NCBI GenBank assembly: GCA_937881855.1
Contig: CALGEL010000059.1
Span: forward strand, 123,032 to 180,428
Length of the DNA: 57,397 nucleotides
Reading direction: 5' to 3'
From: an uncultured Clostridia bacterium
GTDB lineage: Bacteria > Bacillota > Clostridia > Oscillospirales > QAKW01
Part shown: positions 15,895 to 40,710 of the stretch, piece after piece
Layout of the letters: the number at the start of each line of letters is the position of its first letter
How positions within the stretch are numbered: the first letter of the stretch is position 1
The notes under the pieces: generated by a model
The model's input: only the letters and a program-made list of their open reading frames with translations
Told to the model about the DNA's origin: nothing
The model's database searches: none
Made by a program: the position numbers and the translations under genes

Positions 15895-15903
15895 GAGGTA
15901 ATT

Positions 15904-16809: not shown

Positions 16810-16828
16810 ACAAATAGGAAGTGACTTT

Positions 16829-17713: not shown

Positions 17714-17724
17714 AGGAACCGAAA

Positions 17725-20700
17725 ATGACTGATTTCGTACACTTACATTTGCATACAGAATATAGCCTTCTGGATGGCGCCTGCCGTATAACCGAAGCGG
17801 TGGCAAAAGCGAAGGCGTTGGGTCAGTCTGCCCTTGCCATCACCGACCATGGTGTTTTATATGGTGCTGTTGACTTTTATAAAACGTGCAAAAAAGAAGG
17901 AATTAAGCCGATCATCGGTTGCGAAATTTATATGGCTCCCCACGGGAGAAAAGACAAACAATATAACCTTGACGGAAAATATTCCCACCTGATTTTATTA
18001 GCAAAAAATAAGGTTGGATACCATAATCTCGTAAAAATCGTATCACGCGGGTTCACCGAAGGCTTTTATTTCAAACCGCGCGCAGATTTTGAACTTTTAG
18101 AAAAATACAGCGAAGGATTAATCTGCCTTTCGGGCTGTATTGCAGGCTCCGTTCAGCAAAAATTATTGAACAACGACTATGAAGGCGCAAAGCAAGAAGC
18201 GTTGCGCTATAAATCTATTTTTGGTGATGATTACTATCTTGAATTGCAAAACCACGGTTATAAAGAAGATGCCGTCATTATTCCGGGCCTTTCAAGAATC
18301 CACCAAGAGACCGGGATATCAATGGTCGCCACCAATGATGCCCATTATATTAATAAAGAGGATTCCTATACCCAAAAGGTGTTAATGTGTATCCAAATGA
18401 ATAAAACATTAAACGATGAGGATGCTCCGGGATTTGATACTGATGAGTTTTATCTCAAAAGCGGGGAAGAAATGGCCCAATTATTTGAGCATTATCCGGA
18501 TGCAGTTTTAAACACCGTTAAGATAGCAAGAGAATGTAATTATGATTTTGAATTTGGCGAATTTCATTTGCCGAAATTTCAATTACCCAATGGCGAAGAC
18601 GATAGTTTTGAATATCTGAAAAAACTTTGTTATAATGGCCTTTCCGAACGTTATAATATTATTGATGATCAACTAAAAAATCGCTTAAATTACGAGCTTG
18701 ACACTATCCAAAATATGGGATATGTCGATTACTTCTTAATTGTCAGCGACTTTATTTCTTATGCCAAAAACAATCGTATTCCTGTTGGCCCCGGAAGAGG
18801 GTCGGCTGCCGGTTCTTTGGTTGCATACTGCCTTCGTATAACCGATATTGATCCGATAGAATATGATCTGCTTTTTGAACGCTTTTTAAATCCCGAGCGT
18901 GTAACAATGCCGGATATTGACATCGATTTTTGCTATGAACGGCGCGGAGAAGTCATTGATTATGTTGTCGAAAAATACGGTGCAGATAATGTCGCTCAAA
19001 TTGTCACTTTTGGTACAATGGCTGCCAAACAGGCGGTAAGAGACGTCGGGCGCGCTATGGGAATGCCTTATGGTGAAGTCGATGCTGTCGCTAAAATGAT
19101 TCCGTTTCGGCTCGGTATCACGTTAAAAGATGCAATTAATGAAGTTCCCACCCTAAAAGAATTGTACGAGACTAATCAGTCTGTCCGCAAATTGCTGGAT
19201 CAAGCTTTGCGTTTGGAAGGGTTCCCGCGTCATAATTCTACCCATGCCGCAGGTGTTGTCATTACTGAAAAAGAGGTCAGCGATTTTGTTCCTGTCGCTG
19301 TCAATGGGGATGCTTCGGTAACCCAATTCTCTATGACGACTTTGGAAGAACTGGGCTTATTAAAAATGGATTTTCTTGGTCTGCGAAATCTGACCATTAT
19401 TCGTGACACAGAAAAATTAATCTCTCAAATCGAGCCCGACTTTAAAGTCGATGATATTCCTTTGAATGATGCGGCTACCTTTAAGACCTTGGCAAGCGGC
19501 AATACAAGCGGTGTTTTCCAAATGGAAAGCCCGGGAATGCGCCAAGTTCTTATGCGGTTAAAGCCTTCGGAATTTGAGGATATTATCGCGGTCATTTCTT
19601 TGTATCGTCCCGGGCCAATGGAGTCTATTCCAACCTACATTGCTAATAAAAATAACCCTGAGAAGATCAAATATTTGACGCCGGAATTGGAGCCTATTTT
19701 AAAGGTCACTTACGGTTGTATCGTCTATCAAGAGCAGGTTATGCAAATCGTTCGTTCTCTTGCCGGTTATTCCTATGCGCGCGCTGATTTGGTGCGCAGA
19801 GCAATGAGCAAGAAAAAAAGCGATGTTATGGAGCGTGAAAGAGAAATCTTTTTGTATGGATCGGTAGATGAAGAAGGGAATATTTTGATCCCGGGCGCGC
19901 TCAGAAACGGAATTAAAAAGGATATCGCAAACAAAATTTTTGATCAAATGATCGATTTTGCAAAATATGCATTCAATAAATCCCATGCCACCTGCTATGC
20001 TAAGGTAGCCTATCAAACTGCCTATTTAAAAACGCATTATCAAAAGCAATATTTGGCTGCATTGATGACGAGCGTGATTGGCTCTACCGAAAAAACAGCG
20101 GAATATATTGAAGAATGCAGACGCTTAAATATCAATGTTTTACCGCCCCACATTAATAAGAGTTATTCCAGATTTCAAGCAACAGAAGACGGCATTGTGT
20201 TCGGCTTGCTTGCCATAAAAAATGTGGGTGTAAAAATGGTTCACGATATTGTGACTGAGCGAGAACAAAATGGGGAATATAAGGACTTTGTCGATTTTTG
20301 TTCGCGAATTTCGGATAAAGACATCAATTCCCGTGCCATCGACAGTATGATTAAATGCGGTGTATTTGACTGTTTTAATTTCAGCCGACGCCATCTTGCA
20401 ATGATTCATGAGCCGCTTTTTAATAGCATCATAGCGGACAAAAAGGATCAAATTGATGGGCAGATCGGGTTGTTTTCGATGATAACTGAACCGGTTGATG
20501 CCGGAGCGCGTTATTTTAAAGAACCGCAGAAAGAATATGAAAAGTCCGTTAAACTTTCCTTTGAAAAAGAGTTGATGGGGATCCATCTTTCCGACAATCC
20601 CTTTGAACCATATCGACACATTTATCAACGCAAGGATATAACAAATTTTAGAGAACTCTTATCGGATGACACGAGCGACGGAGTTCAGGTTTGGATCTTT

Positions 20701-21171
20701 GCTCAAATTGATAACTATAAGTCGGTCAAAACAAAGACCGGATCTGAGATGGGATATTTGACGCTTTCTGATATTTCCGGTACAATGGAGGGAATCTTAT
20801 TTCCGAAGGTTTACGCTTGTTTTCGAAATGGACTGAGTAAAAACAGCATGGTTTTTATCCGTGGCAAAATTCAAAAAGATGAAACTCGCGGAACAAAACT
20901 TTTAATTGATGAAATTCGATACCCGAGTGAAAAAGAATTAAAAGAAAAGACAAAACGGTTATATTTAAAACTTGTGTCCAAAGATTCTCATCAATACGAA
21001 CAAGTCATAAAGATCCTTTCGGAATATTCCGGGATGCATGAGTGTATTTTATATTTTGCTGATACACAAAAAAGTGTCTCCACTTTAAATCGCTTTGGTA
21101 TTGATATCAACGATCAACTTTTAAGTAGGTTAAGAATCATACTGGATGAAGAGAATATTGTGATAAAATAA
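17725..21171 (+). CDS. dnaE: DnaE-type DNA polymerase III alpha subunit
   Basis: FVHLHLHTEYSLLDGA, ITDHG.LYG, GPGRGSAAGSLVAY.L.IT.IDP, PDIDIDF, HAAGVVI, FNKSH..CYA, plus a C-terminal OB fold; 1148 aa. Confidence 0.95.
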   Translation: MTDFVHLHLHTEYSLLDGACRITEAVAKAKALGQSALAITDHGVLYGAVDFYKTCKKEGIKPIIGCEIYMAPHGRKDKQYNLDGKYSHLILLAKNKVGYHNLVKIVSRGFTEGFYFKPRADFELLEKYSEGLICLSGCIAGSVQQKLLNNDYEGAKQEALRYKSIFGDDYYLELQNHGYKEDAVIIPGLSRIHQETGISMVATNDAHYINKEDSYTQKVLMCIQMNKTLNDEDAPGFDTDEFYLKSGEEMAQLFEHYPDAVLNTVKIARECNYDFEFGEFHLPKFQLPNGEDDSFEYLKKLCYNGLSERYNIIDDQLKNRLNYELDTIQNMGYVDYFLIVSDFISYAKNNRIPVGPGRGSAAGSLVAYCLRITDIDPIEYDLLFERFLNPERVTMPDIDIDFCYERRGEVIDYVVEKYGADNVAQIVTFGTMAAKQAVRDVGRAMGMPYGEVDAVAKMIPFRLGITLKDAINEVPTLKELYETNQSVRKLLDQALRLEGFPRHNSTHAAGVVITEKEVSDFVPVAVNGDASVTQFSMTTLEELGLLKMDFLGLRNLTIIRDTEKLISQIEPDFKVDDIPLNDAATFKTLASGNTSGVFQMESPGMRQVLMRLKPSEFEDIIAVISLYRPGPMESIPTYIANKNNPEKIKYLTPELEPILKVTYGCIVYQEQVMQIVRSLAGYSYARADLVRRAMSKKKSDVMEREREIFLYGSVDEEGNILIPGALRNGIKKDIANKIFDQMIDFAKYAFNKSHATCYAKVAYQTAYLKTHYQKQYLAALMTSVIGSTEKTAEYIEECRRLNINVLPPHINKSYSRFQATEDGIVFGLLAIKNVGVKMVHDIVTEREQNGEYKDFVDFCSRISDKDINSRAIDSMIKCGVFDCFNFSRRHLAMIHEPLFNSIIADKKDQIDGQIGLFSMITEPVDAGARYFKEPQKEYEKSVKLSFEKELMGIHLSDNPFEPYRHIYQRKDITNFRELLSDDTSDGVQVWIFAQIDNYKSVKTKTGSEMGYLTLSDISGTMEGILFPKVYACFRNGLSKNSMVFIRGKIQKDETRGTKLLIDEIRYPSEKELKEKTKRLYLKLVSKDSHQYEQVIKILSEYSGMHECILYFADTQKSVSTLNRFGIDINDQLLSRLRIILDEENIVIK

Positions 21172-21173
21172 CA

Positions 21174-21202
21174 TTGATTTTTAAAAATCAATAGTGTATA
21201 AT
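21174..21202 (+). promoter_or_regulatory. Candidate sigma-A promoter for pfkA
   Basis: TTGATT (21174-21179), a 17-nt spacer, then TATAAT (21197-21202). The -35 element lies inside a perfect 20-bp palindrome (21173-21192). Confidence 0.5.
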
Positions 21203-21232
21203 TTCATTTAAAGTAAAAAATGAGGTAATGAA

Positions 21233-22204
21233 ATGGATTCAAAAGTTAAAAAAATCGGTGTTCTTACCAGCGGCGGCGATGCGCCGGGTATGAACGCCGC
21301 CATTCGCGCAGTGGTCCGTGCAGCGCGCGCAAGGGGTATAGAAGTGGTTGGCATCAGAAGAGGTTATGCCGGTTTAATTGCGGGCGATATTATGCCTATG
21401 GATGCTCGCGATGTTTCAAATATTCTTCAAGCCGGCGGAACAACGTTGTTCTCAGCTCGCAGCAAAGAGTTTTGCACCGAAGAGGGATTGGAAAAAGCAG
21501 TTAATGTTTGCCGCGAGGTTGGAATTGAAGGGTTAGTAGTTATTGGCGGCGACGGTTCTTTCCGTGGCGCAGGAGCTCTTTCAGCAAGAGGTATTCCTTG
21601 CGTTGGTGTACCCGCCACTATTGATAATGACATCTCTTCTACCGATTATACTATCGGATTTGATACATGCATCAACTGTGTAGTAGATATGGTTGACCGC
21701 ATTCGCGATACAATGAGATCCCATGAACGGTGTTCTGTTGTAGAAGTAATGGGTAGACACGCCGGTTATGTTGCTTTGCACGCAGGTATTGCCACAGGTG
21801 CGACCTTTGTTATGGTGCCTGAGATTCCTTGTTCTGTTGTAGATGTAATTAAAAAGATCGAAGAAGGGCGCAGATATGGCAAAACAAACTTTATTGTTAT
21901 TGTTGCCGAAGGCGTTGGCCATGCAGAAGAGCTGTCTCGATATATTCAAGATACCACCGGTATTGTTACCCGCGCCACCATTTTGGGGCATGTTCAACGT
22001 GGCGGATCTCCCACCTCGCGCGATCGTGTTCTTGCCAGCCAGTACGGTAATTTTGCTGTCGAGCTTCTTGCAGCGGGGAAGAGCAACCGCGTTGTTGGTA
22101 TAAAAAATGATGTGTTGGTTGATTTTGATCTTCACGAAGCGTTGGCTATGAAGAAAGAATTTCCGATGGATCTTTATGGTATGAGTGATATCATTTCCAT
22201 TTAA
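21233..22204 (+). CDS. pfkA: ATP-dependent 6-phosphofructokinase
   Basis: IGVLTSGGDAPGMNAAIRAVVR, IGGDGS, PATIDND, GFDT and MGR.AG motifs; 323 aa. Confidence 0.95.
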   Translation: MDSKVKKIGVLTSGGDAPGMNAAIRAVVRAARARGIEVVGIRRGYAGLIAGDIMPMDARDVSNILQAGGTTLFSARSKEFCTEEGLEKAVNVCREVGIEGLVVIGGDGSFRGAGALSARGIPCVGVPATIDNDISSTDYTIGFDTCINCVVDMVDRIRDTMRSHERCSVVEVMGRHAGYVALHAGIATGATFVMVPEIPCSVVDVIKKIEEGRRYGKTNFIVIVAEGVGHAEELSRYIQDTTGIVTRATILGHVQRGGSPTSRDRVLASQYGNFAVELLAAGKSNRVVGIKNDVLVDFDLHEALAMKKEFPMDLYGMSDIISI

Positions 22205-22210
22205 TTTTAA

Positions 22211-22251
22211 GATGCGCAGCCTACAAATTGAATGGCTGCGCATCTTTTTTT
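22211..22251 (+). terminator. Intrinsic terminator after pfkA
   Basis: Stem gatgcgcagcc pairs with ggctgcgcatc across a 12-nt loop and is followed by a T7 run. Confidence 0.85.
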
Positions 22252-22271
22252 AAAAACTATTAAAAAAACTC

Positions 22272-22300
22272 TTGATTTTTTTATTAATATAGAATATAAT
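22272..22300 (+). promoter_or_regulatory. Candidate sigma-A promoter for tRNA-Leu
   Basis: TTGATT (22272-22277), a 17-nt spacer, then TATAAT (22295-22300), 17 nt upstream of the tRNA 5' end. Confidence 0.55.
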
Positions 22301-22317
22301 AGATGCGTTCGATAAAT

Positions 22318-22404
22318 GCCGGTGTGTTGGAATTGGCAGACGAGACGGACTCAAAATCCGTTGTCAGTAATGACGTGTGGGTTCAAGTCCCACCACCGGC
22401 ACCA
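22318..22404 (+). tRNA. tRNA-Leu (anticodon CAA), class II with a long variable arm and encoded CCA
   Basis: Acceptor stem GCCGGTG pairs with CACCGGC and is followed by ACCA. The anticodon stem acgga/tccgt encloses loop CTCAAAA, giving anticodon CAA. A long variable arm (tgtcagtaatgacgt) and a T-arm GGTTCAAGTCC are present. Confidence 0.9.
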
Positions 22405-22438
22405 TCCCTCAAGAAGTTTCTTGAGGGATTATTTTTTT
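22405..22438 (+). terminator. Intrinsic terminator after tRNA-Leu, abutting the dapA stop
   Basis: Stem tccctcaag pairs with cttgaggga across a 6-nt loop and is followed by ttattttttt. Confidence 0.8.
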
Positions 22439-23321
22439 AGTAGATGCCCAAAGCATTCAGTTCTTTCTTCATCCTTTTAATGTTTTCGATAGAACTTGGT
22501 ATTAGTGGCAATCTGGGTGATCCGGCAGGAAGCCCCAATTCCTTCATAATCCCTTTGATCGGAATTGGATTTATTTCCGTGAATAGTGCGCGAATTAACG
22601 GAATTAATCGAAGCTGTTCCTTTGTTGCTAATTCGATTTGTTTATCAGAAAATAAAGTATGAATATTTTGAACATCCTTTGGTAGTATATTTGATATGAC
22701 CGAAATTGTTCCGCAACCGCCGAGGGATAAAAAGGGTACGATCTGGTCATCGTTTCCGCAATAAACTGCAAGATCCGGGCAACTGGAACGAATATCTGCC
22801 AAACCCGAAATATCGTTACTTGCTTCTTTTAAGGCGATGACATTTGAATGTTGAGCGATCATCTTCATTGTTTGAGGTTCTATTTTAATTCCCGTCCGAG
22901 CAGGGACATTATACATAATAATCGGTAAATTTACACGATCTGCAATGAATGAATAATGGCGAATCAGCCCTTCCTGCGTTGTTTTATTGTAATATGGTGT
23001 CACAATCAGAAGCCCATCTGCGCCTCTTTTTTGAGCCTCTAAACTTCGTTTGATTGCCACATCGGTATTGTTGCTTCCGCTCCCTGCTATTAACGGTACG
23101 CGATGATTAATATAGTACGCAGACTTTGAGATCAACAAACTATATTCTTCAAAAGATAACGTGCTTGCTTCACCGGTTGTTCCCGCAATCACAATGGCTT
23201 GTATCCCGTTTTTAATTTGAAATTCGATTAATTCTTCCAAACCATCAAAATCAACGGTTCCATCGCTTTTAAATGGTGTAATCAGTGCTGTGGCGGCGCC
23301 TGTAAATAGTTTTGTGGACAT
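22437..23321 (-). CDS. dapA: 4-hydroxy-tetrahydrodipicolinate synthase
   Basis: GAATALITPF, AGTTGE, GSN.T, TPYYNK, and the active-site Lys context (ALKEAS). The start was moved to MSTKLF (23321), since the track's 16-codon extension has no homologous content. Confidence 0.9.
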   Translation of the reverse strand: MSTKLFTGAATALITPFKSDGTVDFDGLEELIEFQIKNGIQAIVIAGTTGEASTLSFEEYSLLISKSAYYINHRVPLIAGSGSNNTDVAIKRSLEAQKRGADGLLIVTPYYNKTTQEGLIRHYSFIADRVNLPIIMYNVPARTGIKIEPQTMKMIAQHSNVIALKEASNDISGLADIRSSCPDLAVYCGNDDQIVPFLSLGGCGTISVISNILPKDVQNIHTLFSDKQIELATKEQLRLIPLIRALFTEINPIPIKGIMKELGLPAGSPRLPLIPSSIENIKRMKKELNALGIY

Positions 23322-23433
23322 GTTGTACCTCAAATAATAAAAATCTATTGAAATATTTTCTTGTTCCAATTATAATTTATGTTTAGATAGCATTTTTTGA
23401 TTCAAATAAAATTAGTTTAAGTGGGTAATTAAA

Positions 23434-24462
23434 GTGACTGTTAACGATTTCGATTATCATTTGCCTGAAAATTTAATAGCGCAGACTCCGTTAGATTGCA
23501 GAGACCATTCGCGGCTTTTAGTTCTGCATCGCAATAGCGGTGAAGTGGAGCATAAACATTTTTATGATATTGTTGATTATTTAAATGAAGGCGATTTATT
23601 AGTAATTAATGATTCCAAGGTCATTCCGGCAAGAATATACGGGAACCGTGAGGGAACCGGTGGGGCTGTGGAAGTTCTGCTTTTAAAGGCAATGGAAGAA
23701 AATGTATGGGAAGTATTAGTGAAGCCGGGTCGAAAAGCGAAGGTTGGTCAAAAACTTGAGTTTAACGGCATAATGACCGGTGAAGTTCTGGAGATTTTGG
23801 ACGACGGAAAACGAAAAATTCGCTTTACTCATAATGGCACTTCTATTTATGAAGTGTTGGATCAAATCGGAAAAATGCCGCTCCCGCCTTATATAACGGA
23901 GGAGTTGAAGGAACAAGATCGATATCAAACAGTATATGCGCGCGAATTGGGCTCTGCTGCGGCACCCACTGCCGGACTACATTTTACAAATGAATTATTG
24001 GAAAAGTTGCGCGCCAAAGGCGTGGAAGTGGCAACAGTTACGCTTCACGTTGGGTTGGGGACTTTTCGCCCTGTGAAGGTGGAAGAAATAACTGACCATA
24101 TTATGCATTCGGAATACTTTTCAATTCCCAAAGAAACCATTAAAAAAATTGCTGAAGCCAAAGCGAACGGACGGCGTGTCATTTCTGTGGGAACTACAGC
24201 GACAAGAACGCTGGAAAGCGGTTTTGATTTTAATGGAAGATGCGTTCAGCCGTCGGGCGATACAAGCATTTTCATTTATCCCGGATATACATTCAAGGTG
24301 GTTGATGCTTTAATAACAAACTTTCATCTTCCTAAAAGTACCTTGATGATGCTTGTGAGCGCACTGGCAGGAAGAGATAAAATTATGGCTGCATATGCCG
24401 AAGCTGTTAAGGAAGAATACCGATTTTTCAGTTTTGGAGATGCAATGTTTATTTGTGATTGA
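23434..24462 (+). CDS. queA: S-adenosylmethionine:tRNA ribosyltransferase-isomerase
   Basis: FDY.LPE.LIAQ.P, SRLLVL, PLPPYI, YQTVYA...[24 protein letters not shown] and GTT..R.LES. Confidence 0.95.
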
Positions 24463-24472
24463 GGTGAATCCT

Positions 24473-25603
24473 ATGTTTCATTTAGATAAAAAAGTCGGCA
24501 ATGCACGACGCGGTCGATTTGAAACGGTACACGGTACAATTCAAACACCGGTTTTTATGAATGTTGCGACCTGCGGCGCCATTAAAGGTGCGGTTTCAGC
24601 ACTTGATCTGAAAGATTTGAAATGTCAGGTGCAGCTTTGCAATACCTATCATTTGCATTTGCGTCCGGGCGACGAAATTGTTCGCAAGCTTGGTGGCATC
24701 CACAAAATGACCGGTTGGAGCGGTCCGATTTTGACCGATAGCGGTGGATTTCAAGTATTTTCGCTTGCAAAGTTGCGGAACATTACCGAAGAAGGAGTAA
24801 CCTTCGCTTCGCATATTGACGGACATAAGATTTTTATGGGACCCGAAGAAAGCATGCAAATCCAATCGAATCTCGGCTCAACCATCGCGATGGCGTTTGA
24901 TGAGTGCGTAGAAAATCCCGCAAAATATGATTATGCAAAAAAATCGGCTGAGCGTACGGTTCGTTGGTTAATTCGAAGCAAAGAAGCATTGAAAAAATTG
25001 AACGCTAAGGAAGACGCTTGTAATCCGGCGCAGATGCTGTTTGCCATCAATCAGGGAAGCACCTATCCCGATCTTCGCATTGAACATATGAAAAAGATCG
25101 TTGAAGTCGGTGCAGACGGTTATGCTATCGGCGGTTTGGCTGTGGGCGAAACTGCGGAAGAGATGTATCAAGTTTTGGATGCTGTAATGCCATATGCACC
25201 GGAAGATAAACCTCGCTATTTAATGGGGGTTGGAACTCCGGTCAATATTTTAGAAGGAGTAGCGCGGGGCGTGGATTTCTTCGATTGCGTTATGCCTGCC
25301 CGCAATGCGCGTCATTCCCACTTGTTTACAAGTGGCGGTGTGATGAATTTATTAAACAAGAAATATGAGTTGGACGAACGACCCATTGATGAAAAATGCG
25401 ACTGCCCAGCGTGCAGAAACTTCACGCGAGCCTATATTCGCCATTTATTCAAGGCGGGGGAGATGCTCGCCATGCGGTTGTGTGTAATGCATAACTTATA
25501 TTTCTATAATGATCTGATGGAACAAATTCGTCACCACATTGAAGTCGGTGATTTTTACGAATGGAAAGATGAGCAAGTCAAAGTGTTTGGAAAACGAATT
25601 TGA
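24473..25603 (+). CDS. tgt: Queuine tRNA-ribosyltransferase
   Basis: ARRG...T.HG...TP.FM.V, TDSGGFQVFSL, FAI.QG, GYAIGGL.VGE, and the zinc motif CDC.AC...RAY..HL. Start is ATG 24473 (MFHLDKK); track start 24395 overlaps queA. Confidence 0.95.
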   Translation: MFHLDKKVGNARRGRFETVHGTIQTPVFMNVATCGAIKGAVSALDLKDLKCQVQLCNTYHLHLRPGDEIVRKLGGIHKMTGWSGPILTDSGGFQVFSLAKLRNITEEGVTFASHIDGHKIFMGPEESMQIQSNLGSTIAMAFDECVENPAKYDYAKKSAERTVRWLIRSKEALKKLNAKEDACNPAQMLFAINQGSTYPDLRIEHMKKIVEVGADGYAIGGLAVGETAEEMYQVLDAVMPYAPEDKPRYLMGVGTPVNILEGVARGVDFFDCVMPARNARHSHLFTSGGVMNLLNKKYELDERPIDEKCDCPACRNFTRAYIRHLFKAGEMLAMRLCVMHNLYFYNDLMEQIRHHIEVGDFYEWKDEQVKVFGKRI

Positions 25604-25605
25604 GG

Positions 25606-25634
25606 TTGACAATAATTGGTTTATTTGATATAGT
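25606..25634 (+). promoter_or_regulatory. Candidate sigma-A promoter for yajC
   Basis: TTGACA (25606-25611), a 17-nt spacer, then TATAGT (25629-25634). Confidence 0.5.
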
Positions 25635-25670
25635 TTAAGCAATATATTTTAATAAAAAGGAGATTTCACA

Positions 25671-25946
25671 ATGGAAGGTATTGGACAAATGTTGCCGATG
25701 ATCTTGGTTCTTGTTGTAATGGTAGGATTTACATTCTTTATGTCGAGAAAGGATAAGAAACGCCAGCAAGAACGCAAAAATATGCAAAATAACCTTGAGG
25801 TTGGCGATCAGGTTCTGATGGAATGTGGGATTGTCGGTAAGGTAGTATCCACCAAGGATTTGGAAACTGTTGTTATCGAAACCGGCTCCGATAAGACCAA
25901 ATTGCGTTTCAAAAGATGGGCGATTGCAGCAAAGATCGAAGATTAA
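25671..25946 (+). CDS. yajC: Preprotein translocase subunit YajC
   Basis: A 91-aa single-TM protein with the YajC core (RKDKKRQQE...L..GD.V....GI.G.V) in the conserved queA-tgt-yajC order. An RBS (aaggag) lies upstream. Confidence 0.85.
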   Translation: MEGIGQMLPMILVLVVMVGFTFFMSRKDKKRQQERKNMQNNLEVGDQVLMECGIVGKVVSTKDLETVVIETGSDKTKLRFKRWAIAAKIED

Positions 25947-26007
25947 TGGCATAAATACATTTCGTCATCTCATATGTTTTATTAAAAACTATGAAGAGGT
26001 GCGGAAA

Positions 26008-26406
26008 ATGAACAAAGAATCTACTAAAAAAATCACAGCGCTTGGCGTTGTGATTTTTTCTTTTGTCAGTATTTTAATTTACGCGTTGATTGTATTTTGT
26101 ATTGACAGTTTGGCGGTGCTGTTGGTGCTAAAAACTCAATTATCAGAGAACTTTTTAAAGATAGGAAGCGTAGTAGCCTCGGGTGTCGGTTTGATAACGT
26201 CGACGGGGTTGATGACCGTTCAAACGAAATTAAAGGGAATTTATGCTGCGGCAATAATGTTTGGAATGGTGTTCATTATCAAAATTATTGGAAATGCATC
26301 ATTGAACTTTGGTGGATATTTTACACTCAATGGATTTATCGGCATTTTGTTTTTAATCGTTTTTGCGTTAGCAGGGGGGATCCTTGGAAGCTTATTTAAA
26401 AAATAA
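26008..26406 (+). CDS. Small four-TM membrane protein, possibly TIGR04086/YrzE-like
   Basis: 132 aa from ATG 26008 (MNKESTKK); four hydrophobic segments. The track's N-terminal extension from 25870 overlaps yajC. The family call comes from memory of what follows yajC in Clostridia. Confidence 0.4.
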   Translation: MNKESTKKITALGVVIFSFVSILIYALIVFCIDSLAVLLVLKTQLSENFLKIGSVVASGVGLITSTGLMTVQTKLKGIYAAAIMFGMVFIIKIIGNASLNFGGYFTLNGFIGILFLIVFALAGGILGSLFKK

Positions 26407-26540
26407 CTTGTCATTTTGCATAAATCAATAATTTAAGTTAAATAATTTTAATTTTGTTCTTGACAATCAAAAAACAACTGTATTTGGAGATTGTAACAAA
26501 AAAATATCTATATCTTGTGTTGTTTTATCTTTAAAACAAT

Positions 26541-26694
26541 GGTTTACATAATCTTTTGTAGTTGGTTTACATAATAATTTTTGTCAGGTTTGACAAAAAT
26601 TTATTATGTGATAAATTCTCCTTGATTTATATATTTTTTTAAGTTAAAATTAGTATTACTCTCCCAAAATATGATGACACGTTAATTTACATAA
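26541..26694. repeat. Cluster of four dif XerD-arm-like 11-mers within a nested palindrome, in a 330-bp ORF-free gap
   Basis: GGTTTACATAA occurs at 26541-26551 and 26564-26574, and AATTTACATAA at 26684-26694; their reverse complements are TTATGTAAACC and TTATGTAAATT. An inverted copy TTATGTGATAA lies at 26604-26614. An imperfect inverted repeat of about 20 bp (ttacataataatttttgtca / tgacaaaaatttattatgtga) is centred near 26589. Confidence 0.7.
26564..26591 (-). other. Best 11-6-11 candidate dif core (AAACCTGACAA-AAATTA-TTATGTAAACC)
   Basis: The XerD arm matches B. subtilis dif (TTATGTAAACT) at 10 of 11 positions, with an AT-rich 6-bp centre. The putative XerC arm matches only about 5 of 11. 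The site lies where the sampled GC skew flips, 760 bp upstream of xerD. Confidence 0.35.
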
Positions 26695-26702
26695 TATTTT
26701 TG

Positions 26703-26731
26703 GAATAATAACGGACAAACCCTCATACCTT
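26703..26731 (+). promoter_or_regulatory. Candidate sigma-E-type promoter for spoIIM-xerD
   Basis: GAATAAT (26703-26709), a 14-nt spacer, then CATACCTT (26724-26731). The B. subtilis sigma-E consensus, as I recall it, is an ATA-type -35, 14 nt, then CATACAhT. The -10 has two mismatches, and the spacer contains GGACAA (SpoIIID-box-like). Confidence 0.3.
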
Positions 26732-26748
26732 TTATTGAGGTGATCATA

Positions 26749-27336
26749 ATGGGCCGTTTAATGTTGAAGATTAAAAATGATTTTGTCAATGAAATTCCGT
26801 TAATTCGCATTTATTCTATATTATATTTAGCGGGGATTTTTATAGGTACGATCGGTGTCATACTTTCCTTTGATGCGCTTTCCAATATACCTTCAGCCAT
26901 CTTTACTACTGCGGATTCTTTGGAATTTGGCGGGATATTTTTTCAGCATTTTTGTTTTTTTCTGTCGCTGTACTTATTGGGAATGTCTGTAATTGGGCTT
27001 CCGCTTCTGCCGTTTTTTCCATTATATAAAGGTTTTTCGATCGGAGTAATCCTATCAATAGCCTTGATTTCAAATGGACTGCGCTGCTTCTTTATAAGTG
27101 TCCTGACATTTGTTTTTCAAAATATTTTTACTTTAATATTGGGATATTTTATTTGCATTTCCTCTGCCCGTCTGTCAATCTCTTTTTTTGAATTATTAAA
27201 GGGAAGGGGGAAACATTCTGCGTTATATCACGAGTTTTTAAACCATACATACCGTTTTTTGATTATTACGCCAATTCTGTTGCTTTTGAGTTATTTGCAA
27301 TGGAAGATCGTTCCGATCATCATTAAATTTTATTAG
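26749..27336 (+). CDS. spoIIM: Stage II sporulation protein M
   Basis: A polytopic protein of about 195 aa with the SpoIIM-like pattern (FLSLYLLGMSVIGLPLLPFFPLYKGFSIGV), immediately upstream of xerD as in many Clostridia. ATG 26749 follows gaggtg. Confidence 0.7.
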   Translation: MGRLMLKIKNDFVNEIPLIRIYSILYLAGIFIGTIGVILSFDALSNIPSAIFTTADSLEFGGIFFQHFCFFLSLYLLGMSVIGLPLLPFFPLYKGFSIGVILSIALISNGLRCFFISVLTFVFQNIFTLILGYFICISSARLSISFFELLKGRGKHSALYHEFLNHTYRFLIITPILLLLSYLQWKIVPIIIKFY

Positions 27337-27353
27337 AAAAGGAGGGGAGTACG

Positions 27354-28256
27354 GTGGAAAAAACTTATATGAATTTTTGCAATTTTCTCATGACTAAAAA
27401 GAAGACATCCGCCAATACTCTCGCTTCCTATCAGCGTGATCTTCGCCAACTGATTCAATATCTGGAAGGAAAGCAAGTTTCTTCTTGGAGCGAAGTTTCA
27501 GATGAATTGTTAAATACCTATTTTTCCTTTTTGAAAAGTTGCAACAAAAGCGACGCTACCATCTCCCGTTCGATGTCCACAATGCGTTGTTTTTTCAAAT
27601 ACTTGGTTTCCAAAAAAATCATATCTGCCAGCCCGATGGTCGGCATCAGAGGATTGAAAAGCGAAACCAAATTACCCGAAGTTCTTTCCGGCGAGGAAGT
27701 AGAACAACTCTTATGGCAACCCGATACTCAAACCGTCAAGGGTATGAGAGATAAGGCAATGCTGGAAGTATTATATGCTTCGGGAATTCGTGTCACCGAG
27801 TTGCTTTCTTTAAAACTATCCGATGTCAATCTCGATGTTGGATATTTAATGATGAACAAATATGAAGAGAATGAACGCATCATCCCCATTTATGCGTTAG
27901 CTGTTCAGTCGCTGAGAAATTATATGAACCAAGCCAGGCCCCAGTTGGTTGATAACAATAAAGAACAAACGCTTTTTGTCAATACCAATGGACAAGCTAT
28001 GACTCGTCAAGGGTTTTGGAAACTTGTAAGGCAATATACTTTGTCGGCAAATATTGCCAAAGATATCACTCCCAAGATATTGCGCCATTCTTTCGCTACG
28101 CATTTACTTGAAAATGGAGCAGATATTAATATGGTGAAAGATATGATGGGCCATTCTTCGTTGAATTCGACAAGAGTTTATGCGAAGCTACTTAAAGCTA
28201 AATATCTTTCAACCTATGAAAATTGTCACCCAAGAGCTGTAAAGGTAGGCGAATAA
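27354..28256 (+). CDS. xerD: Site-specific tyrosine recombinase XerD
   Basis: 300 aa with N-domain SANTLASYQRDL..L and catalytic residues in GIRVTELLSL, LRHSFATHLLENGADI..V..MMGHSSL..T.VY. A GTG start follows aggagggg. Confidence 0.85.
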   Translation: MEKTYMNFCNFLMTKKKTSANTLASYQRDLRQLIQYLEGKQVSSWSEVSDELLNTYFSFLKSCNKSDATISRSMSTMRCFFKYLVSKKIISASPMVGIRGLKSETKLPEVLSGEEVEQLLWQPDTQTVKGMRDKAMLEVLYASGIRVTELLSLKLSDVNLDVGYLMMNKYEENERIIPIYALAVQSLRNYMNQARPQLVDNNKEQTLFVNTNGQAMTRQGFWKLVRQYTLSANIAKDITPKILRHSFATHLLENGADINMVKDMMGHSSLNSTRVYAKLLKAKYLSTYENCHPRAVKVGE

Positions 28257-28259
28257 CAA

Positions 28260-28991
28260 ATGGGGCTTTTTAATGATTATATGCGTGAAGGCAAGGGTGT
28301 TCCAAAAGATCAATACACCCCGCGCTTTATATTGTTTTTCCAAATTTATTTTAGAAAATTTTGGAACCTGATTCTTATAAATTTGTTGTATATTGTTTCC
28401 TGCATCCCAATCGTAACGATTGGACCTGCAACCGCAGGAATAACAAAATTGTTGCGTAATTATGCAAGGGAAGAGCACGCTTTTATTTGGGGCGATTTTA
28501 TTGAGACGGCAAAGAAAAATTTCAAGCAGGCATTCCTTTATGCCACGCTTGATTTAATCGTTACTGTCTTTTTGATTTTTGATTTTTTAGCCATCGGAAA
28601 TATTGCTAATCGTGTAATGTCTATTCTTTGTATGGCGGCAATTTTTCTCGCCTTTACCGTTTGGTCTTTTATGCGATTTTATATTTATAATATGATGGTG
28701 ACCTTTCACCTTACCTTTAAACAATTAATAAAAAATGCATTTATTTTTTGTTGGGTCGGATTTTTCAGAAATCTTTTTACGGCCGTTATTTTATTGGCGG
28801 TTTTTATCATTATTTCCATGCTGAATTTTCCGTATCAACTGCTTATTTACGGAACTTTATTCTTCTCGTTTGGCGGATTTTTAATTAATTTTATGGTTCA
28901 GCCATTAATCAAAAAGCATATGATCGACGGATTTGATCCTGAAACCGGCGAACGATTGGAAGAAGAGAAATACGAAGGTTTTACCGAATAA
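28260..28991 (+). CDS. DUF624 (YesL-like) membrane protein
   Basis: The N-terminus (F..F...FWNLILINLLYIVSCIPIVTIGPATAG) is typical of DUF624/YesL proteins, and multiple TM segments follow. Confidence 0.6.
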   Translation: MGLFNDYMREGKGVPKDQYTPRFILFFQIYFRKFWNLILINLLYIVSCIPIVTIGPATAGITKLLRNYAREEHAFIWGDFIETAKKNFKQAFLYATLDLIVTVFLIFDFLAIGNIANRVMSILCMAAIFLAFTVWSFMRFYIYNMMVTFHLTFKQLIKNAFIFCWVGFFRNLFTAVILLAVFIIISMLNFPYQLLIYGTLFFSFGGFLINFMVQPLIKKHMIDGFDPETGERLEEEKYEGFTE

Positions 28992-28998
28992 AATCAAT

Positions 28999-29030
28999 AA
29001 AACAGCCGCATCAAAAGCGGCTGTTTTTTA
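28999..29030 (+). terminator. Intrinsic terminator
   Basis: Stem aaacagccgc pairs with gcggctgttt across a 7-nt loop and is followed by a T run. Confidence 0.85.
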
Positions 29031-29042
29031 TTATTAAAACTA

Positions 29043-29071
29043 TTGTATTTTTATTGGGTTTTTGGTATAAT
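29043..29071 (+). promoter_or_regulatory. Candidate sigma-A promoter (extended -10) for mltG
   Basis: TTGTAT (29043-29048), a 17-nt spacer, then TGgTATAAT (29063-29071). Confidence 0.5.
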
Positions 29072-29097
29072 TTATTAAAAAATATCTGAGGTGTTTA

Positions 29098-30171
29098 ATG
29101 AAAAAGAAAGTCATCATTCTTGGAATTATCATTTTATCTATTCTTGCAATTATTCTTGGCGCGATTATTGCGATCCCTAAGATCAAAGGATACCTCCCAT
29201 ATTATTATGATCTTAACGGAAAAAACCAGCAGGACAAGCCTTATGTCTTGGAAATTGATAAGACCGATTTCGCAAATGAAGTTGTCAAAGAATTATTTGA
29301 TAACGGCATCATTTGTTCTTCTGCTCGTTTTTTAAATTATATTAACAAAAACTATCCCGACTTCGTTTGGTACAATGGTGTTTATCATCTCAATGCCAAT
29401 ATGTCTTATAAGCAATTATGCGAAGCATTGATGCACCCTGATGAAACCTTGAATTATGTTAAATTCACCGTTCCCGAAGGTAAAAACGTGCGCGACATAG
29501 CGAACATCGTTTCAAAGTCCGGCCTATGCACAGCCGACGAGTTTTTGAAGGCTGCCGACAGCTATGATTATGACTTTGATTTTATTGACGAATTAAAGAA
29601 TCGCGATCAAAGTAAAATCGGCTATAAGTTAGAGGGTTATCTTTTTCCGGCAACCTATGAATTTCGCGCAGATACGGTTACTCCGCAAGAAATTGTGGCA
29701 AAAATGCTGCAAACATTTTCGGAATATGTTACCCCCGAAATGATCAAAAAGGCAAAAAAAATGGACCTTTCACTCAATGAATTTATCACCTTTGGCTCCG
29801 TTGTACAAGCCGAAGCGTTCAGCAAAGAATCCATGGCCGGAGTTTCTTCCGTTTTTTGGAATCGACTGAATTCAAAAGAATATCCCAGACTTCAATCGGA
29901 CCCCACAACAAAATATGCGAAGTCTTTATCAGATCTTTCTCATTACTCCAAGGATATGCGCTCTGCCTATGACACATATACTTGCAGCAATTTGCCCGTC
30001 GGACCGACAAATTGCCCCGGCATCGACGTTTTAAACGCAATCTTAAACCCGCCAAAAACGGATTATTATTATTTTGTCACCGATAAAAATGGGCAATTCT
30101 ATTTTAACACCACCCTTAAAGGGCATAACCAGATAATTCAATCTCTTAAAAGCAAAGGTCTTTGGGCTTAA
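29098..30171 (+). CDS. mltG: Endolytic murein transglycosylase MltG (YceG-like)
   Basis: N-terminal TM anchor, F.VPEG, LEGYLFP.TYEF, ASIVQ.E-like (GSVVQAEA), SVFWNRL, LQSDPT and YDTY...LP.GPI.NPG. Confidence 0.9.
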   Translation: MKKKVIILGIIILSILAIILGAIIAIPKIKGYLPYYYDLNGKNQQDKPYVLEIDKTDFANEVVKELFDNGIICSSARFLNYINKNYPDFVWYNGVYHLNANMSYKQLCEALMHPDETLNYVKFTVPEGKNVRDIANIVSKSGLCTADEFLKAADSYDYDFDFIDELKNRDQSKIGYKLEGYLFPATYEFRADTVTPQEIVAKMLQTFSEYVTPEMIKKAKKMDLSLNEFITFGSVVQAEAFSKESMAGVSSVFWNRLNSKEYPRLQSDPTTKYAKSLSDLSHYSKDMRSAYDTYTCSNLPVGPTNCPGIDVLNAILNPPKTDYYYFVTDKNGQFYFNTTLKGHNQIIQSLKSKGLWA

Positions 30172-30174
30172 ATT

Positions 30175-31740
30175 ATGATCCATTTAATTCAACACCCTTC
30201 GTATAACAAAATTACTCCAGACACAATTCAACCCGAAGCTCCGTACACATTCGATTATTTATCGCAAGGGGAGGAGTTAGGGTATCAAGTAGTTGTATAT
30301 ACAGATAGTGCCCAAGGAATCCCGGCCAAATTTGAATTAGAGTTTAACGGACAATATCAGGTGTATTTGGAAAAATACGTCGATGTCAACCGACCGTATT
30401 TTGAAGGTGACCCGAAGAGTGGTTATCTGATCGATAACCCCGATGCTTTACCGGATTGCTTGATACCGATTTCTCCCGACGATGTCTTTTTCATTAATTG
30501 CAACTATATCGTACTATGGGTTTCAATTTCCACAGAAAATATCGGCGAAAACAAATCGACTTTGACGATTTCAACCAAGGATGAATCAGCAAGTTGCACC
30601 TTGGATTTAAATGTTGTACAAATTAGTAAAAATCCGCAATCTTTCGGTCATTGCGAATATGTTGACCCCGTTTTTCTCGTTAAAGACCATGGGGTGGCGC
30701 TGTTTGGCGATAGGTTTTGGAACATATTGCATCAATATTTTAAATTGGCCGCAGACCACGGTGTCAATGAAATCCTGGTGCCACTCTTTACTCCGCAATA
30801 TCCCAACTATCCATCCGAAAAATTGATTCAATTAGTCAGCATTAAGAAGATTGGGGAGGACTATGAGTTCAACTTTGATCTTTTGGATCGATGGATCAAA
30901 ACAGCGCTGGATGTAGGCATCACTCGTTTAACATTCCCTGTATTTCTGCCGGATTTTGATCATCCCTTTGGTGCGCCGATTATCGTCCAAGTTGACGGTG
31001 AAGAGCAGCTACTTAACGAAAACGAAACGGTTTTATCTAAAAATTATAAGATCTTTACACGAAAGTTTTTAAATAAACTTTTGAAACATTTGGAAAAATA
31101 TCGTCCCCATATTTTCAGTTTTCATTTTTCTTGCTCGCCGCAGGTATGGAACGAAAAGATCTATCAAGAATTTCGCGCAGTATTTTGTGAATATGTCAGA
31201 AAATACAGAATTTCAGATTATGATGTAGAATATCGATTTTACAAGAAAGATCTTGTCGGCTCAGCGATCGTTCATCTTCACGACCTTTTTGCATACCCCG
31301 AAGATTCAGCCAACTTTTTGAACGGTTGCTTCGACATCGCCGATTATAACGACCCAATAAATATGTCGATTGCATCTTCTTCTGTTCGACTAAGGTGTCT
31401 GGGTGCCTTTGGATATCGATATGAATTAGCTCGTTTCTTCCATATGGGCTTTAATGCACCGGATTTAGATAATCAGTATCCATCCGGCAGTTTATCATTG
31501 GTATATCCCGGTGAAACAGAAGTGTATCCTTCCATACGATTAAAGCAATTAAAATATGCAATTCAGGATAATCGTCTTTTAGATGCGCTGCATTCAAGAT
31601 ATTCACCCAAACGGATGAATGGATTGATCGATCGATATTTATTCAAAAATGATCGTTATATGGACGATCCGATTCGCTACCAAAAATTCAGAACCGAAAT
31701 ATATGAATTATTAGAAAACATAAATAAATATAGGAAATGA
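30175..31740 (+). CDS. DUF4091-like putative glycoside-hydrolase-fold protein
   Basis: A 521-aa cytoplasmic protein with no TM segments. The family assignment is from memory of DUF4091 proteins (size, central barrel-like segment), not a search. Confidence 0.35.
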   Translation: MIHLIQHPSYNKITPDTIQPEAPYTFDYLSQGEELGYQVVVYTDSAQGIPAKFELEFNGQYQVYLEKYVDVNRPYFEGDPKSGYLIDNPDALPDCLIPISPDDVFFINCNYIVLWVSISTENIGENKSTLTISTKDESASCTLDLNVVQISKNPQSFGHCEYVDPVFLVKDHGVALFGDRFWNILHQYFKLAADHGVNEILVPLFTPQYPNYPSEKLIQLVSIKKIGEDYEFNFDLLDRWIKTALDVGITRLTFPVFLPDFDHPFGAPIIVQVDGEEQLLNENETVLSKNYKIFTRKFLNKLLKHLEKYRPHIFSFHFSCSPQVWNEKIYQEFRAVFCEYVRKYRISDYDVEYRFYKKDLVGSAIVHLHDLFAYPEDSANFLNGCFDIADYNDPINMSIASSSVRLRCLGAFGYRYELARFFHMGFNAPDLDNQYPSGSLSLVYPGETEVYPSIRLKQLKYAIQDNRLLDALHSRYSPKRMNGLIDRYLFKNDRYMDDPIRYQKFRTEIYELLENINKYRK

Positions 31741-31751
31741 AAGGAAATAAT

Positions 31752-32846
31752 ATGAAATTAGGTATTGTGGGATTACCCAATGTCGGTAAAAGTACTTTAT
31801 TTAATGCAATTACAAACGCAAAAGCACAATCGGCAAACTATCCGTTTTGTACTATCGATCCCAATGTTGGAGTTGTATGTGTCCCCGATAAACGGCTGGA
31901 TATTTTGGGCGAAATGAATCGTTCAAAAAAGATTGTTCCAGCCATCATCGAATTTGTTGACATTGCCGGATTGGTAAAGGGAGCGTCCAAGGGCGAAGGT
32001 CTTGGGAATAAATTTTTGGGGAACATCCGCGAAGTGGATGCGATTGTCCATGTGGTTCGCTGTTTTGAAGACTCAAATATTGTCCATGTAGATGGTTCGG
32101 TCGATCCCATTCGAGATATTGACACAATCAATCTCGAATTAATCTTTTCCGACATCGAATTGGTAGAAAAACTGCGCGATCGCGCCGCAAAATTGGCCAA
32201 AGGGGATAAGAAGCATTTGGTCGAAGTTGCTTTGTTTGATAAACTCAAAGAAGCGTTAGAGCAGGAGCGTTTTGTCAGCACGGTTGAATTAACCGACGAA
32301 GAAAAAGAGATAATGAAAAGTGTTTCTTTGCTTACCGATAAGCCGGTCATTTACGCCGCCAATGTTTGCGAAGAAGATTTCAAAAACGGAAAGCTAAGCA
32401 ACCCCTATATTGAGGCGGTTGAAGAGCGCGCGTCCAAAGAAAATGCGGAAGTTCTTGTCATTTGCGCTCGAATGGAAGAAGAAATCAGCGAATTGGACGA
32501 AGAAGAAAAGGAGCTCTTTCTTGCTGAACTGGGTTTTGAACACAGCGGCTTGGATCGTATGATTTCGACCTGCTATAATCTTTTGGGTTTGATCAGTTAC
32601 ATCACCAGCGGCGAGATGGAAACCAAGGCTTGGACGATCAAAGAAGGAACCAAGGCTCCGCAAGCCGCAGGAAAGATCCATTCCGACTTTGAACGCGGCT
32701 TTATTCGTGCTGAAATTGTTTCTTATGACGACCTAATCGAATGTGGCTCAATGGTAGCCGCCCGCGAAAAAGGATTGGTTCGAAGCGAAGGAAAGGAATA
32801 TGTTATGAAAGACGGAGATGTGGTCCTTTTCCGTTTCAATGTATAA
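31752..32846 (+). CDS. ychF: Ribosome-binding ATPase YchF
   Basis: MKLGIVGLPNVGKSTLFNA, DIAGLVKGAS.GEGLGN.FL, and a C-terminal TGS-like domain (KAWTI..G..AP.AAG.IHSDFE.GFIRAE). Start taken at ATG 31752. Confidence 0.95.
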   Translation: MKLGIVGLPNVGKSTLFNAITNAKAQSANYPFCTIDPNVGVVCVPDKRLDILGEMNRSKKIVPAIIEFVDIAGLVKGASKGEGLGNKFLGNIREVDAIVHVVRCFEDSNIVHVDGSVDPIRDIDTINLELIFSDIELVEKLRDRAAKLAKGDKKHLVEVALFDKLKEALEQERFVSTVELTDEEKEIMKSVSLLTDKPVIYAANVCEEDFKNGKLSNPYIEAVEERASKENAEVLVICARMEEEISELDEEEKELFLAELGFEHSGLDRMISTCYNLLGLISYITSGEMETKAWTIKEGTKAPQAAGKIHSDFERGFIRAEIVSYDDLIECGSMVAAREKGLVRSEGKEYVMKDGDVVLFRFNV

Positions 32847-32882
32847 AAAAATAAGAGTTCCAAACGGAACTCTTATTTTTTA
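32845..32882. terminator. Bidirectional intrinsic terminator between ychF and spoIIE
   Basis: Stem aataagagttcc pairs with ggaactcttatt, with an A run upstream and a T run downstream. Confidence 0.85.
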
Positions 32883-35015: not shown

Positions 35016-35143
35016 TTTAATCTCCTTGTTTTTTATTAAATTATAAATAAACCGAAGATTTAATTTTGTCGTATTTTTGTTGATTTTAAAATTTTATTAA
35101 AGGTATAGATATTTTTGATTTTTTCATATATAATGTTCTTATT

Positions 35144-36199: not shown

Positions 36200-36202
36200 T
36201 TT

Positions 36203-36730: not shown

Positions 36731-36769
36731 TGTAAAACCGGTGTGTCATAATGACACACCGGTTTTACA
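36731..36769 (+). terminator. Intrinsic terminator formed by a 39-bp perfect palindrome
   Basis: tgtaaaaccggtgtgtcat a atgacacaccggttttaca; the T run is part of the 3' arm. Confidence 0.75.
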
Positions 36770-36792
36770 TATAGTTTGAAGAGGTGATGGAG

Positions 36793-37479: not shown

Positions 37480-37537
37480 CTTTGTCGAAAATATCATTTA
37501 AAATATAATAAAAAATATCAAGGCGGTATAAATAACT

Positions 37538-38890: not shown

Positions 38891-38891
38891 T

Positions 38892-38925
38892 AAATGCCCT
38901 GCTTACGCAGGGCATTTAATTTATC
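38892..38925. terminator. Bidirectional terminator between radA and the HD gene
   Basis: Stem aaatgccctgc pairs with gcagggcattt and has T-rich flanks. Confidence 0.8.
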
Positions 38926-40628: not shown

Positions 40629-40710
40629 TCTTACTCTCCAAATTTTATTTAATTTATTATAACACATAAATATTGTAAAAATAAAGTATATTTGGAAAAA
40701 AGTTTTTACC

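Follow-up and report, generated by a model that had tools for sequence, protein, structure and literature searches.

Gene order of the window and its relatives

We analyzed a stretch of 57,397 nucleotides (in the following called the window) from contig CALGEL010000059.1 of an uncultured Clostridia bacterium, which very probably spans the replication terminus of a circular chromosome, with the two replication forks converging in it. A terminus is an ordinary feature, and one had been proposed for this DNA in an earlier reading made from the letters alone (the sequence-only reading), in which the GC skew changed sign between tgt and xerD, at 25,600 to 27,360. As listed in Table 1, the window contains a left block of + strand genes with dapA on the - strand, the trio spoIIM-xerD-DUF624, a block of mostly + strand genes ending with the gene of an XerC-like tyrosine recombinase (in the following called xerC), and a right block of - strand genes. 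The left block has a leading-strand-type composition on its + strand. A 28-bp palindrome in front of xerC is a candidate for dif, the site of chromosome dimer resolution.

Table 1. Features of the window (positions counted from its first nucleotide).
Feature	Position	Strand	Remarks
Putative end of the left replichore (sepF ... pyrH, frr, polC, dnaE, pfkA, dapA(-), queA, tgt, yajC, DUF3792-like open reading frame)	1..26406	+	Replication term +0.05 to +0.08 in three sub-bins
dnaE	17725-21171	+	
pfkA	21233-22204	+	
dapA	22437-23369	-	
queA	23434-24462	+	
tgt	24473-25603	+	
yajC	25671-25946	+	
Small DUF3792-like membrane open reading frame	26008-26406	+	
Zone of replication-skew sign change, putative point of fork convergence	26407..29097	.	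Change points at 27.0 kb, at 26,573 and just before 29,098
Three direct copies of TTTACATAAT	26543..26695	+	Starts at 26543, 26566 and 26686; only copies in the window
spoIIM	26749-27336	+	Pfam/NCBIfam
xerD-like	27354-28256	+	305 bits against TIGR02225 (cutoff 329.6); PRK00283 subfamily cutoff passed
DUF624/MusI-family membrane protein	28260-28991	+	Pfam/NCBIfam
Inverted block (mltG ... xerC-like), mostly + strand genes	29098..45087	+	Lagging-strand-type composition, replication term -0.03 to -0.06
mltG	29098-30171	+	
GH123-like	30175-31740	+	
ychF	31752-32846	+	
spoIIE	32880-35015	-	
mutY	35144-36199	+	
cwlD-like	36784-37479	+	
radA	37538-38890	+	
Candidate dif palindrome	44050..44077	.	11-6-11, 27 bp upstream of the xerC-like start codon
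XerC-like tyrosine recombinase, 327 amino acids	44104..45087	+	Best NCBIfam match XerC, 224 bits (equivalog cutoff 335)
G+C-rich hairpin where the xerC-like gene and the first - strand gene converge	45091..45119	.	Read from the sequence
Putative start of the right replichore (HTH regulator, M24 peptidase, V-type ATPase operon, MadL/MadM)	45132..57154	-	Replication term -0.06 to -0.07

The genes converge locally at 45.1 kb, and the hairpin at this local switch of gene orientation is probably a bidirectional terminator, judged by its letters. The sequence-only reading had all genes on the - strand from 45 kb onwards, which holds true up to 57.2 kb; further to the right, from 57.9 kb, the genes are on the + strand again, namely infC, rpmI, rplT, the gene of a SpoU-family methylase, dprA, topA, trmFO, plsX, acpP, and rnc. 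The presence of polC, pyrH, and frr near a terminus, which had been called unusual, is not so, as in Bacillus subtilis the same cluster is located in the part of the chromosome close to the terminus.

For comparison we used sequences of relatives (designated by L-numbers) from the Oscillospirales, labeled mostly as Acutalibacteraceae, Ruminococcaceae, or Oscillospiraceae, among them two close relatives, C1 (L091 plus L089) and C2 (L092 plus L090), each of them an NCBI contig from a metagenome-assembled genome (MAG). The homologous locus shows a clear convergence of gene orientation in many relatives, and the spoIIM-xerD-DUF624 trio (26749..28991), whose + strand orientation is conserved across relatives by synteny, adjoins the ancestral convergence point. 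In L005, L019, L068, L028, L004, and L011 the order is spoIIM(+), where present xerD(+) and DUF624(+), then xerC(-), the dif-like palindrome, radA(-), and cwlD-like(-). The window has the reverse order, cwlD-like(+), radA(+), further genes, palindrome, and xerC(+), with the palindrome and xerC at the far end of the block. Judged by this gene order, the block at 29-45 kb is inverted with respect to the more distant and more numerous relatives, which explains the genes that appear to be oriented head-on to replication and bears out the local rearrangement that the sequence-only reading had suspected behind them. C1 and C2 share the gene order of the window through xerC (C1 from dnaE, C2 from dapA/queA; the xerC of C1 is 84% identical). 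As this order is common to relatives with 47-93% protein identity, the arrangement is old. The order across the junction at 26-27 kb also recurs in L003 (tgt 81% identical), C1, C2, and the ENA contig NODE_17 (87.7 kb), which is nearly but not fully identical to the window (proteins 99-100% identical, madM DNA 99.9% identical). This recurrence rules out an assembly chimera.

Replication-linked skew and the position of its switch

The raw GC skew of the + strand showed three regimes, with values of about +0.13 at 1-27 kb, about 0 at 27-45 kb, and about -0.13 at 45-57 kb. Between 27 and 45 kb the values per kb swung from -0.14 to +0.18, and the cumulative skew formed a plateau with its maximum within the window at 32,898. 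The G+C content fell at 26-27 kb from about 0.41-0.42 to about 0.35-0.36. The proposed sign change between tgt and xerD therefore does not apply to the raw skew, which merely drops to zero at 26-27 kb, but it stands for the component linked to replication, as shown by the following fits.

The skew evidence covers the 57 kb of the window, or 75 kb in total with the contig extensions. In a site-level logistic fit, G versus C at each coding G/C site was modeled with a coding-strand term per codon position and one replication term whose sign flips at a movable point. The best fit was a single switch at 27.0 kb (likelihood ratio 50.5) with a sharp peak, the likelihood-ratio profile falling to about 5 by 45 kb. 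A gene-level weighted regression with a coding and a replication term placed the change point at 26,573 with F = 37.1, the former term being 0.085 and the latter 0.050. When the coding-strand skews were shuffled among the genes, none of 2000 permutations reached this F value (95th percentile of the null distribution, 11.9). A third fit left the replication term (r) free in three regions and was assessed by gene-cluster bootstrap; r was +0.059 at 1-27 kb, -0.042 at 27-45 kb (confidence interval excluding 0), and -0.064 at 45-57 kb. The r values of the first two regions differed in all bootstrap replicates, and those of the second and third regions did not differ. In eight sub-bins, the replication term was +0.08, +0.05, and +0.05 in the first region, -0.03, -0.06, and -0.03 in the second, and -0.07 and -0.06 in the third.

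All three fits and the permutation bear out the claim that the replication-linked skew flips its sign once. The signs of the earlier decomposition were correct, but its magnitudes were exaggerated, as a coding term of 0.13 compares with a measured 0.085 and a replication term of 0.08 with 0.05. The hand-sampled skews of + strand genes agreed only roughly with those measured, being +0.21 compared to +0.15 on the left (mean coding-strand skew in the left block, 0.152) and -0.05 compared to +0.04 at 27-45 kb. The third codon positions, which had been suggested as a check, agreed at the scale of the window. At these positions, the + strand genes on the left had a pooled + strand skew of +0.022. 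To the right, the pooled + strand skew was -0.095 in + strand genes and reached -0.099 and -0.094 in those of the - strand. As it is negative right of the step for genes on both strands, the + strand is C-rich there whichever strand codes. The replication-associated skew thus switches from + to - independently of the coding strand, which is the polarity of a terminus and not of an origin.

The genes spoIIM, xerD, and DUF624 have an intrinsically low skew in every lineage examined, as does xerC. The unpaired estimate was drawn to 26.6 kb by these three genes. In a paired comparison of orthologues (window minus C1 or C2), which cancels gene-specific composition, the series stepped just before mltG, at 29,098. 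As the three genes are low everywhere, we place the step by the paired estimate. The switch is thus best resolved to 26.6-29.1 kb and probably lies at the DUF624/mltG boundary. This is near the interval originally claimed, the refined step lying about 1.7 kb to the right of it.

In the paired comparison, the + strand orthologues of the left block (n = 6) differed from those of C1 by +0.016 at all positions and by -0.02 at third positions, neither of which was significant. The + strand orthologues of the inverted block (n = 15) were G-poorer than their counterparts, by -0.083 in comparison with C1 and -0.073 in comparison with C2 (Wilcoxon p = 0.0006 and 0.0003) and by -0.20 and -0.19 at third positions. 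All four - strand orthologues of the block were G-richer (+0.14 and +0.15; third positions, +0.33 and +0.36). Opposite shifts on the two coding strands indicate a reversed direction of replication rather than an effect of amino acid usage, codon usage, or gene content, and an explanation by gene content is ruled out by this test together with the permutation result.

In C1 and C2, r of the block was +0.09 to +0.10 and fell to about zero or below only right of xerC and the palindrome, and no skew change was found at the position equivalent to 27 kb. The terminus-type switch lies at the palindrome or a few kb to the right of it in C2, at least 8 kb to the right in C1, and 15-17 kb to the left in the window. 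The position in the window is therefore lineage-specific. Its cause may be an imbalance of the replichores or the retention of an ancestral meeting point, and the wandering of the switch fits termination by the meeting of forks and not at a fixed trap.

The contig extensions continue both trends. To the left, 8.7 kb of + strand genes have a skew of +0.10 to +0.14. To the right, the + strand genes at about 57.9-66 kb (L086 1-8114) have a coding-strand skew of -0.03 overall and -0.285 at third positions, which is of the lagging-strand type, although the latter value may be due in part to the codon-usage bias of highly expressed genes. Including these extensions, the replication term is positive for at least 35 kb leftwards and negative for at least 39 kb rightwards. 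As a separate observation on strand composition, the coding-strand AT skew at third positions was about 0.15 higher for + strand genes of the window than in C1 and C2, and that of - strand genes was unchanged.

The xerC gene, its palindrome and the XerD-arm repeats

We first met the orthologue of xerC on the - strand of relatives, while tracing a motif resembling the XerD arm of dif. The protein of the window is 54% identical to its L005 orthologue, and some homologues are named "tyrosine recombinase XerC" by NCBI. As shown in Table 1, neither of the two recombinases of the window passes its equivalog cutoff, and the XerC-like protein scores 147 bits with the NCBIfam model of XerS (cutoff, 267).

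The palindrome, ACTGCGCAAAA-TATTCA-TTTTGTGCAGT, has arms that match at 10 of 11 positions and occurs once in the window, with 0 occurrences expected by chance. In about 18 of 22 relatives, and also in L089 and L090, the orthologous recombinase gene is preceded by an equivalent 11-6-11 palindrome, the distance between the two being 20-630 bp in about 20 relatives. The arms vary between clades with complementarity being kept (ATTATACAAAA/TTTTGTATAAT, ATTTCGCTAAA/TTTAGCGAAAT, and CTTGCACAAAA/TTTTGTGCAAG; in L005 ATTATACATAA/TTATGTATAAT), and they are perfect (11/11) in most relatives. Among the approximately 18 relatives with enough sequence around the palindrome, 17 had a raw skew of at least 0 in the 8 kb on the tgt side and of -0.03 to -0.17 on the other side, and the palindrome-bearing relatives with such a + to - change belong to several genera. 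These features suggest that the palindrome is probably a functional dif at which chromosome dimers are resolved. It lies about 15-17 kb to the right of the skew switch.

A canonical Firmicutes dif was not found in the window. Searches with four dif consensus sequences (B. subtilis/Staphylococcus aureus, Desulfitobacterium, Clostridium botulinum, and Escherichia coli) and with a XerD arm plus inner palindrome gave nothing above chance, the closest match to a consensus being 20/28. Compared to the XerC/XerD-dif system of Firmicutes (CodV/RipX in B. subtilis, with the dif sequence ACTTCCTAGAATATATATTATGTAAACT), the window likewise has a XerD-like and a XerC-like gene, and the candidate, located in the terminus region, has the same build of 28 bp, in which two 11-bp arms enclose an A/T-rich spacer of 6 bp. 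It differs in being a nearly perfect palindrome instead of having distinct XerC and XerD arms, in not matching the consensus, and in lying immediately upstream of xerC, and also in that both recombinases score below the equivalog cutoffs.

A site adjoining the gene of its recombinase is regarded as a possible hallmark of single-recombinase modules (review, PMC5357621). The candidate shares this position with XerS/difSL of streptococci and lactococci and XerH/difH of Helicobacter and Campylobacter, and its nearly perfect symmetry fits binding by a single protein. Unlike those recombinases, the protein of the window is closest to XerC and stays below the cutoff of the XerS model, and the sequence of the site is unrelated to difSL. 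Since a XerD-like gene is also present, 16 kb away, the organism is not obviously a single-recombinase one. The module of xerC and palindrome occurs in either orientation with respect to its neighbors across genera (L027 at 17.5-18.8 kb and L051 at 17.7-18.8 kb compared to L005, L019, and others), and this variation suggests repeated small inversions around the terminus.

Upstream of the spoIIM-xerD genes, the window contains the direct repeats of TTTACATAAT. On the opposite strand this motif reads TTATGTAAA, the core of the XerD arm of dif. Only 0.25 copies are expected in the window, and the three that are present flank a sigma-70-like promoter identified by a promoter scan at 26590-26617. 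Identically spaced trios were found in L003 and L005. Of the close relatives, C1 carries all three copies and C2 carries two that are exact. Among the 11 relatives with xerD at the locus, 8 have arrays of two to four copies in front of the xerD operon. The repeats are also present in L008, L018, L027, L028, L051, and L080, with a spacing of 14-20 bp in other genera, and no copy was found in relatives such as L019, where xerC directly follows spoIIM and xerD is absent from the locus. The second copy in the window belongs to an imperfect inverted repeat of 19 bp, which L003 does not share. A complete dif hidden in the trio could be dismissed, as no copy is followed by a XerC-type arm.

The repeats are probably either regulatory (operator or promoter elements) or an array bound by XerD. 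XerD-binding sites (XDS) are said to unload SMC at the B. subtilis terminus, a finding attributed to Karaboja et al. 2021. By analogy the array may have an XDS-like role, as its copies match the XerD arm of dif (TTATGTAAAC), have no recognizable XerC arm, and are located in the terminus region upstream of xerD. They differ from XDS in that they are repeated directly and closely, at distances of 23 and 120 bp, within a promoter region. Since the arrays co-occur with the xerD operon in relatives, a role as operator or promoter is at least as likely as one as XDS. We considered the trio as a fork barrier or as the cause of the switch and dropped both ideas, as the motif is present at this place in C1 and C2 without a terminus-type switch; as their skew switches elsewhere, the array does not set the terminus.

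A tentative and rather doubtful generalization is that in many Oscillospirales dimers are resolved at a gene-linked, perfectly palindromic 28-bp dif with the consensus ATTATACAAAA-N6-TTTTGTATAAT, with the adjacent XerC-like protein acting on both arms, and that XerD binds to separate arrays of the half-site TTATGTAAA upstream of its own operon, where it may serve autoregulation or an XDS-like function in the terminus region. In the literature searched on Xer/dif, no description of a gene-linked palindromic dif in Clostridia was found.

The probable replication terminus and alternative explanations

The presence of a terminus in the window, as claimed by the sequence-only reading, is supported by the + to - polarity of the switch, its persistence, the XerC-like gene with its palindrome, and the skew of relatives at the palindrome. 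From the skew switch we infer that the forks physically meet at 27-29 kb. In this model of a circular chromosome from an Acutalibacteraceae-like member of the Oscillospirales, a rightward fork would copy the DNA up to about 27-29 kb and a leftward fork that from there to at least 66 kb. The leading strands would gain G over C, so that the replication-linked skew of the + strand would flip from about +0.05 to about -0.05, and dimers would be resolved at the palindromic gene-linked site beside the XerC-like recombinase. In the more distant relatives, the dif-like site is located right at the convergence point, adjoining spoIIM/xerD/DUF624. In the lineage of the window, the first 16 kb of the right replichore would have been inverted long ago, so that dif and xerC came to lie at the far end of this block and its genes became oriented head-on to the fork. 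An inversion within one replichore keeps the replichore lengths, and the meeting point of the forks would therefore have stayed at the left end of the block, whose composition would since have re-equilibrated to the lagging-strand type.

Comparison with termini defined by GC skew in other bacteria (Kono et al. 2011, PMC3025954) shows several likenesses, namely the + to - switch, Xer genes and a dif-like site within about 17 kb of it, and terminus-proximal A+T richness. In that study, dif was usually located within about 1% of the genome length from the skew shift point and not exactly at it, and xerC genes tended to be near dif. The offset between the candidate dif and the switch in the window is of the size reported in other bacteria. 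A difference is that the raw skew of the window forms a plateau at zero instead of a clean V and is known here from part of a replicon. The plateau results from the old inversion having scrambled gene orientation around the switch. A fork trap of the Ter/RTP type was not found, though no search was aimed at one.

Several points weigh against a terminus at 27-29 kb. The closest relatives, with the identical gene order, switch at the palindrome and not at this position, and a canonical dif is absent. Of the 39 kb that follow the switch on the right, about 26 kb are occupied by + strand genes, including infC-rpmI-rplT and topA-plsX-acpP, so that the + strand genes beyond the window, which are highly expressed, are head-on to the fork if the terminus is placed here; gene orientation is a poor guide to the replichores in this lineage. 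The AT skew shows no matching flip at 27-29 kb. Its difference from relatives at third positions is the same +0.15 for + strand genes of the left and inverted blocks, and it therefore supports neither side. Counts of FtsK-orienting polar sequences (KOPS) and SpoIIIE recognition sequences (SRS), namely GAGAAGGG, GAAGAAG, and GGGNAGGG, and of skewed 6- to 8-mers found de novo resolved no polarity, being too few in 57 kb and confounded with the coding strand. Furthermore, the skew evidence comes from 57-75 kb of a contig and not from a complete chromosome.

An improbable alternative is that the terminus is located in the window but that the forks meet at dif and the orientation switch, at 44-45 kb, the low skew at 27-45 kb being a historical or gene-specific residue. 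This would agree with a raw skew that is clearly negative only from 45 kb, with the gene convergence at 45.1 kb, with the corrected switch at xerC/dif in C1 and C2, and with the intrinsically low skew of spoIIM, xerD, DUF624, and xerC in all lineages. However, at the third positions of the block the + strand is C-rich for genes of both orientations (-0.095 for + strand genes and -0.099 for - strand genes), the replication term of the block is negative with a bootstrap confidence interval that excludes 0, and the paired orthologues still shift in opposite directions on the two strands after removal of gene-specific effects. A historical residue of a recent inversion would moreover be expected to have a leading-type and not a lagging-type composition, and the arrangement is old.

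Somewhat less probable still is that the window contains no terminus, the step at 27-29 kb being the end of a large inversion within one replichore and the palindrome a regulatory or terminator hairpin. Locally, such an inversion has the same skew signature as a terminus, and this explanation would be in line with the lack of a canonical dif and with genes that are mostly on the + strand to the right of the step, as on the left. A recent inversion, however, predicts mostly - strand genes of leading-type composition, whereas here they are mostly + strand genes of the lagging type, and the locus tgt...spoIIM...xerC with its palindrome shows convergent genes and a + to - skew in many genera. A hairpin would not account for the fixed 11-6-11 geometry, the A/T-rich spacer, and the compensatory arm changes across clades, and many versions of the palindrome are too A/T-rich for good terminators.

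An artifact, whether a chimeric joint near 26-27 kb, a horizontally acquired island, or unusual amino acid or codon usage, could be suspected from the drop in G+C content and from the many low-expression and membrane-protein genes of the block, but it is highly unlikely given that the junction and the full order recur in NODE_17, L003, C1, and C2, that the genes are core housekeeping and sporulation genes, that the paired test controls for gene content, and that no permutation reached the observed F value.

A terminus is expected in every circular chromosome, and its finding in itself is routine. The one described here gives a fixed point for the replichore map of an uncultured lineage of gut Clostridia, and such a point is of use for MAG scaffolding and for growth-rate estimates from peak-to-trough coverage. 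The window also illustrates how a V-shaped skew becomes a plateau after an old inversion close to the terminus, and how the switch can still be located in it by orthologue-paired skew. Of greater interest is a by-product, the palindromic dif candidate that is linked to xerC and common to many Oscillospirales. If confirmed, it would be a further variant among the known Xer/dif systems and serve as a simple terminus marker for the poorly closed genomes of this order.

Some further features of the window were noted. The GH123-like gene next to mltG shows only 25-47% identity to its orthologues in L003, C1, and C2, compared to 59-93% for its neighbors. PolC (12142-15894) has 1250 amino acids and an uninterrupted PHP domain and is devoid of a 3'-5' exonuclease domain. 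We considered this as a possible novelty and rejected it, as PolC without an integral exonuclease is an already described variant, found only in clostridial genomes (PMC3919608). A search of Rfam yielded no RNA family in the spacer at 26.4-26.75 kb, and its matches in the window were confined to one tRNA gene (22318-22401), located between pfkA and dapA, and a TPP riboswitch (5072-5182) upstream of a gene for a YuaJ-type thiamine transporter (5188-5895).

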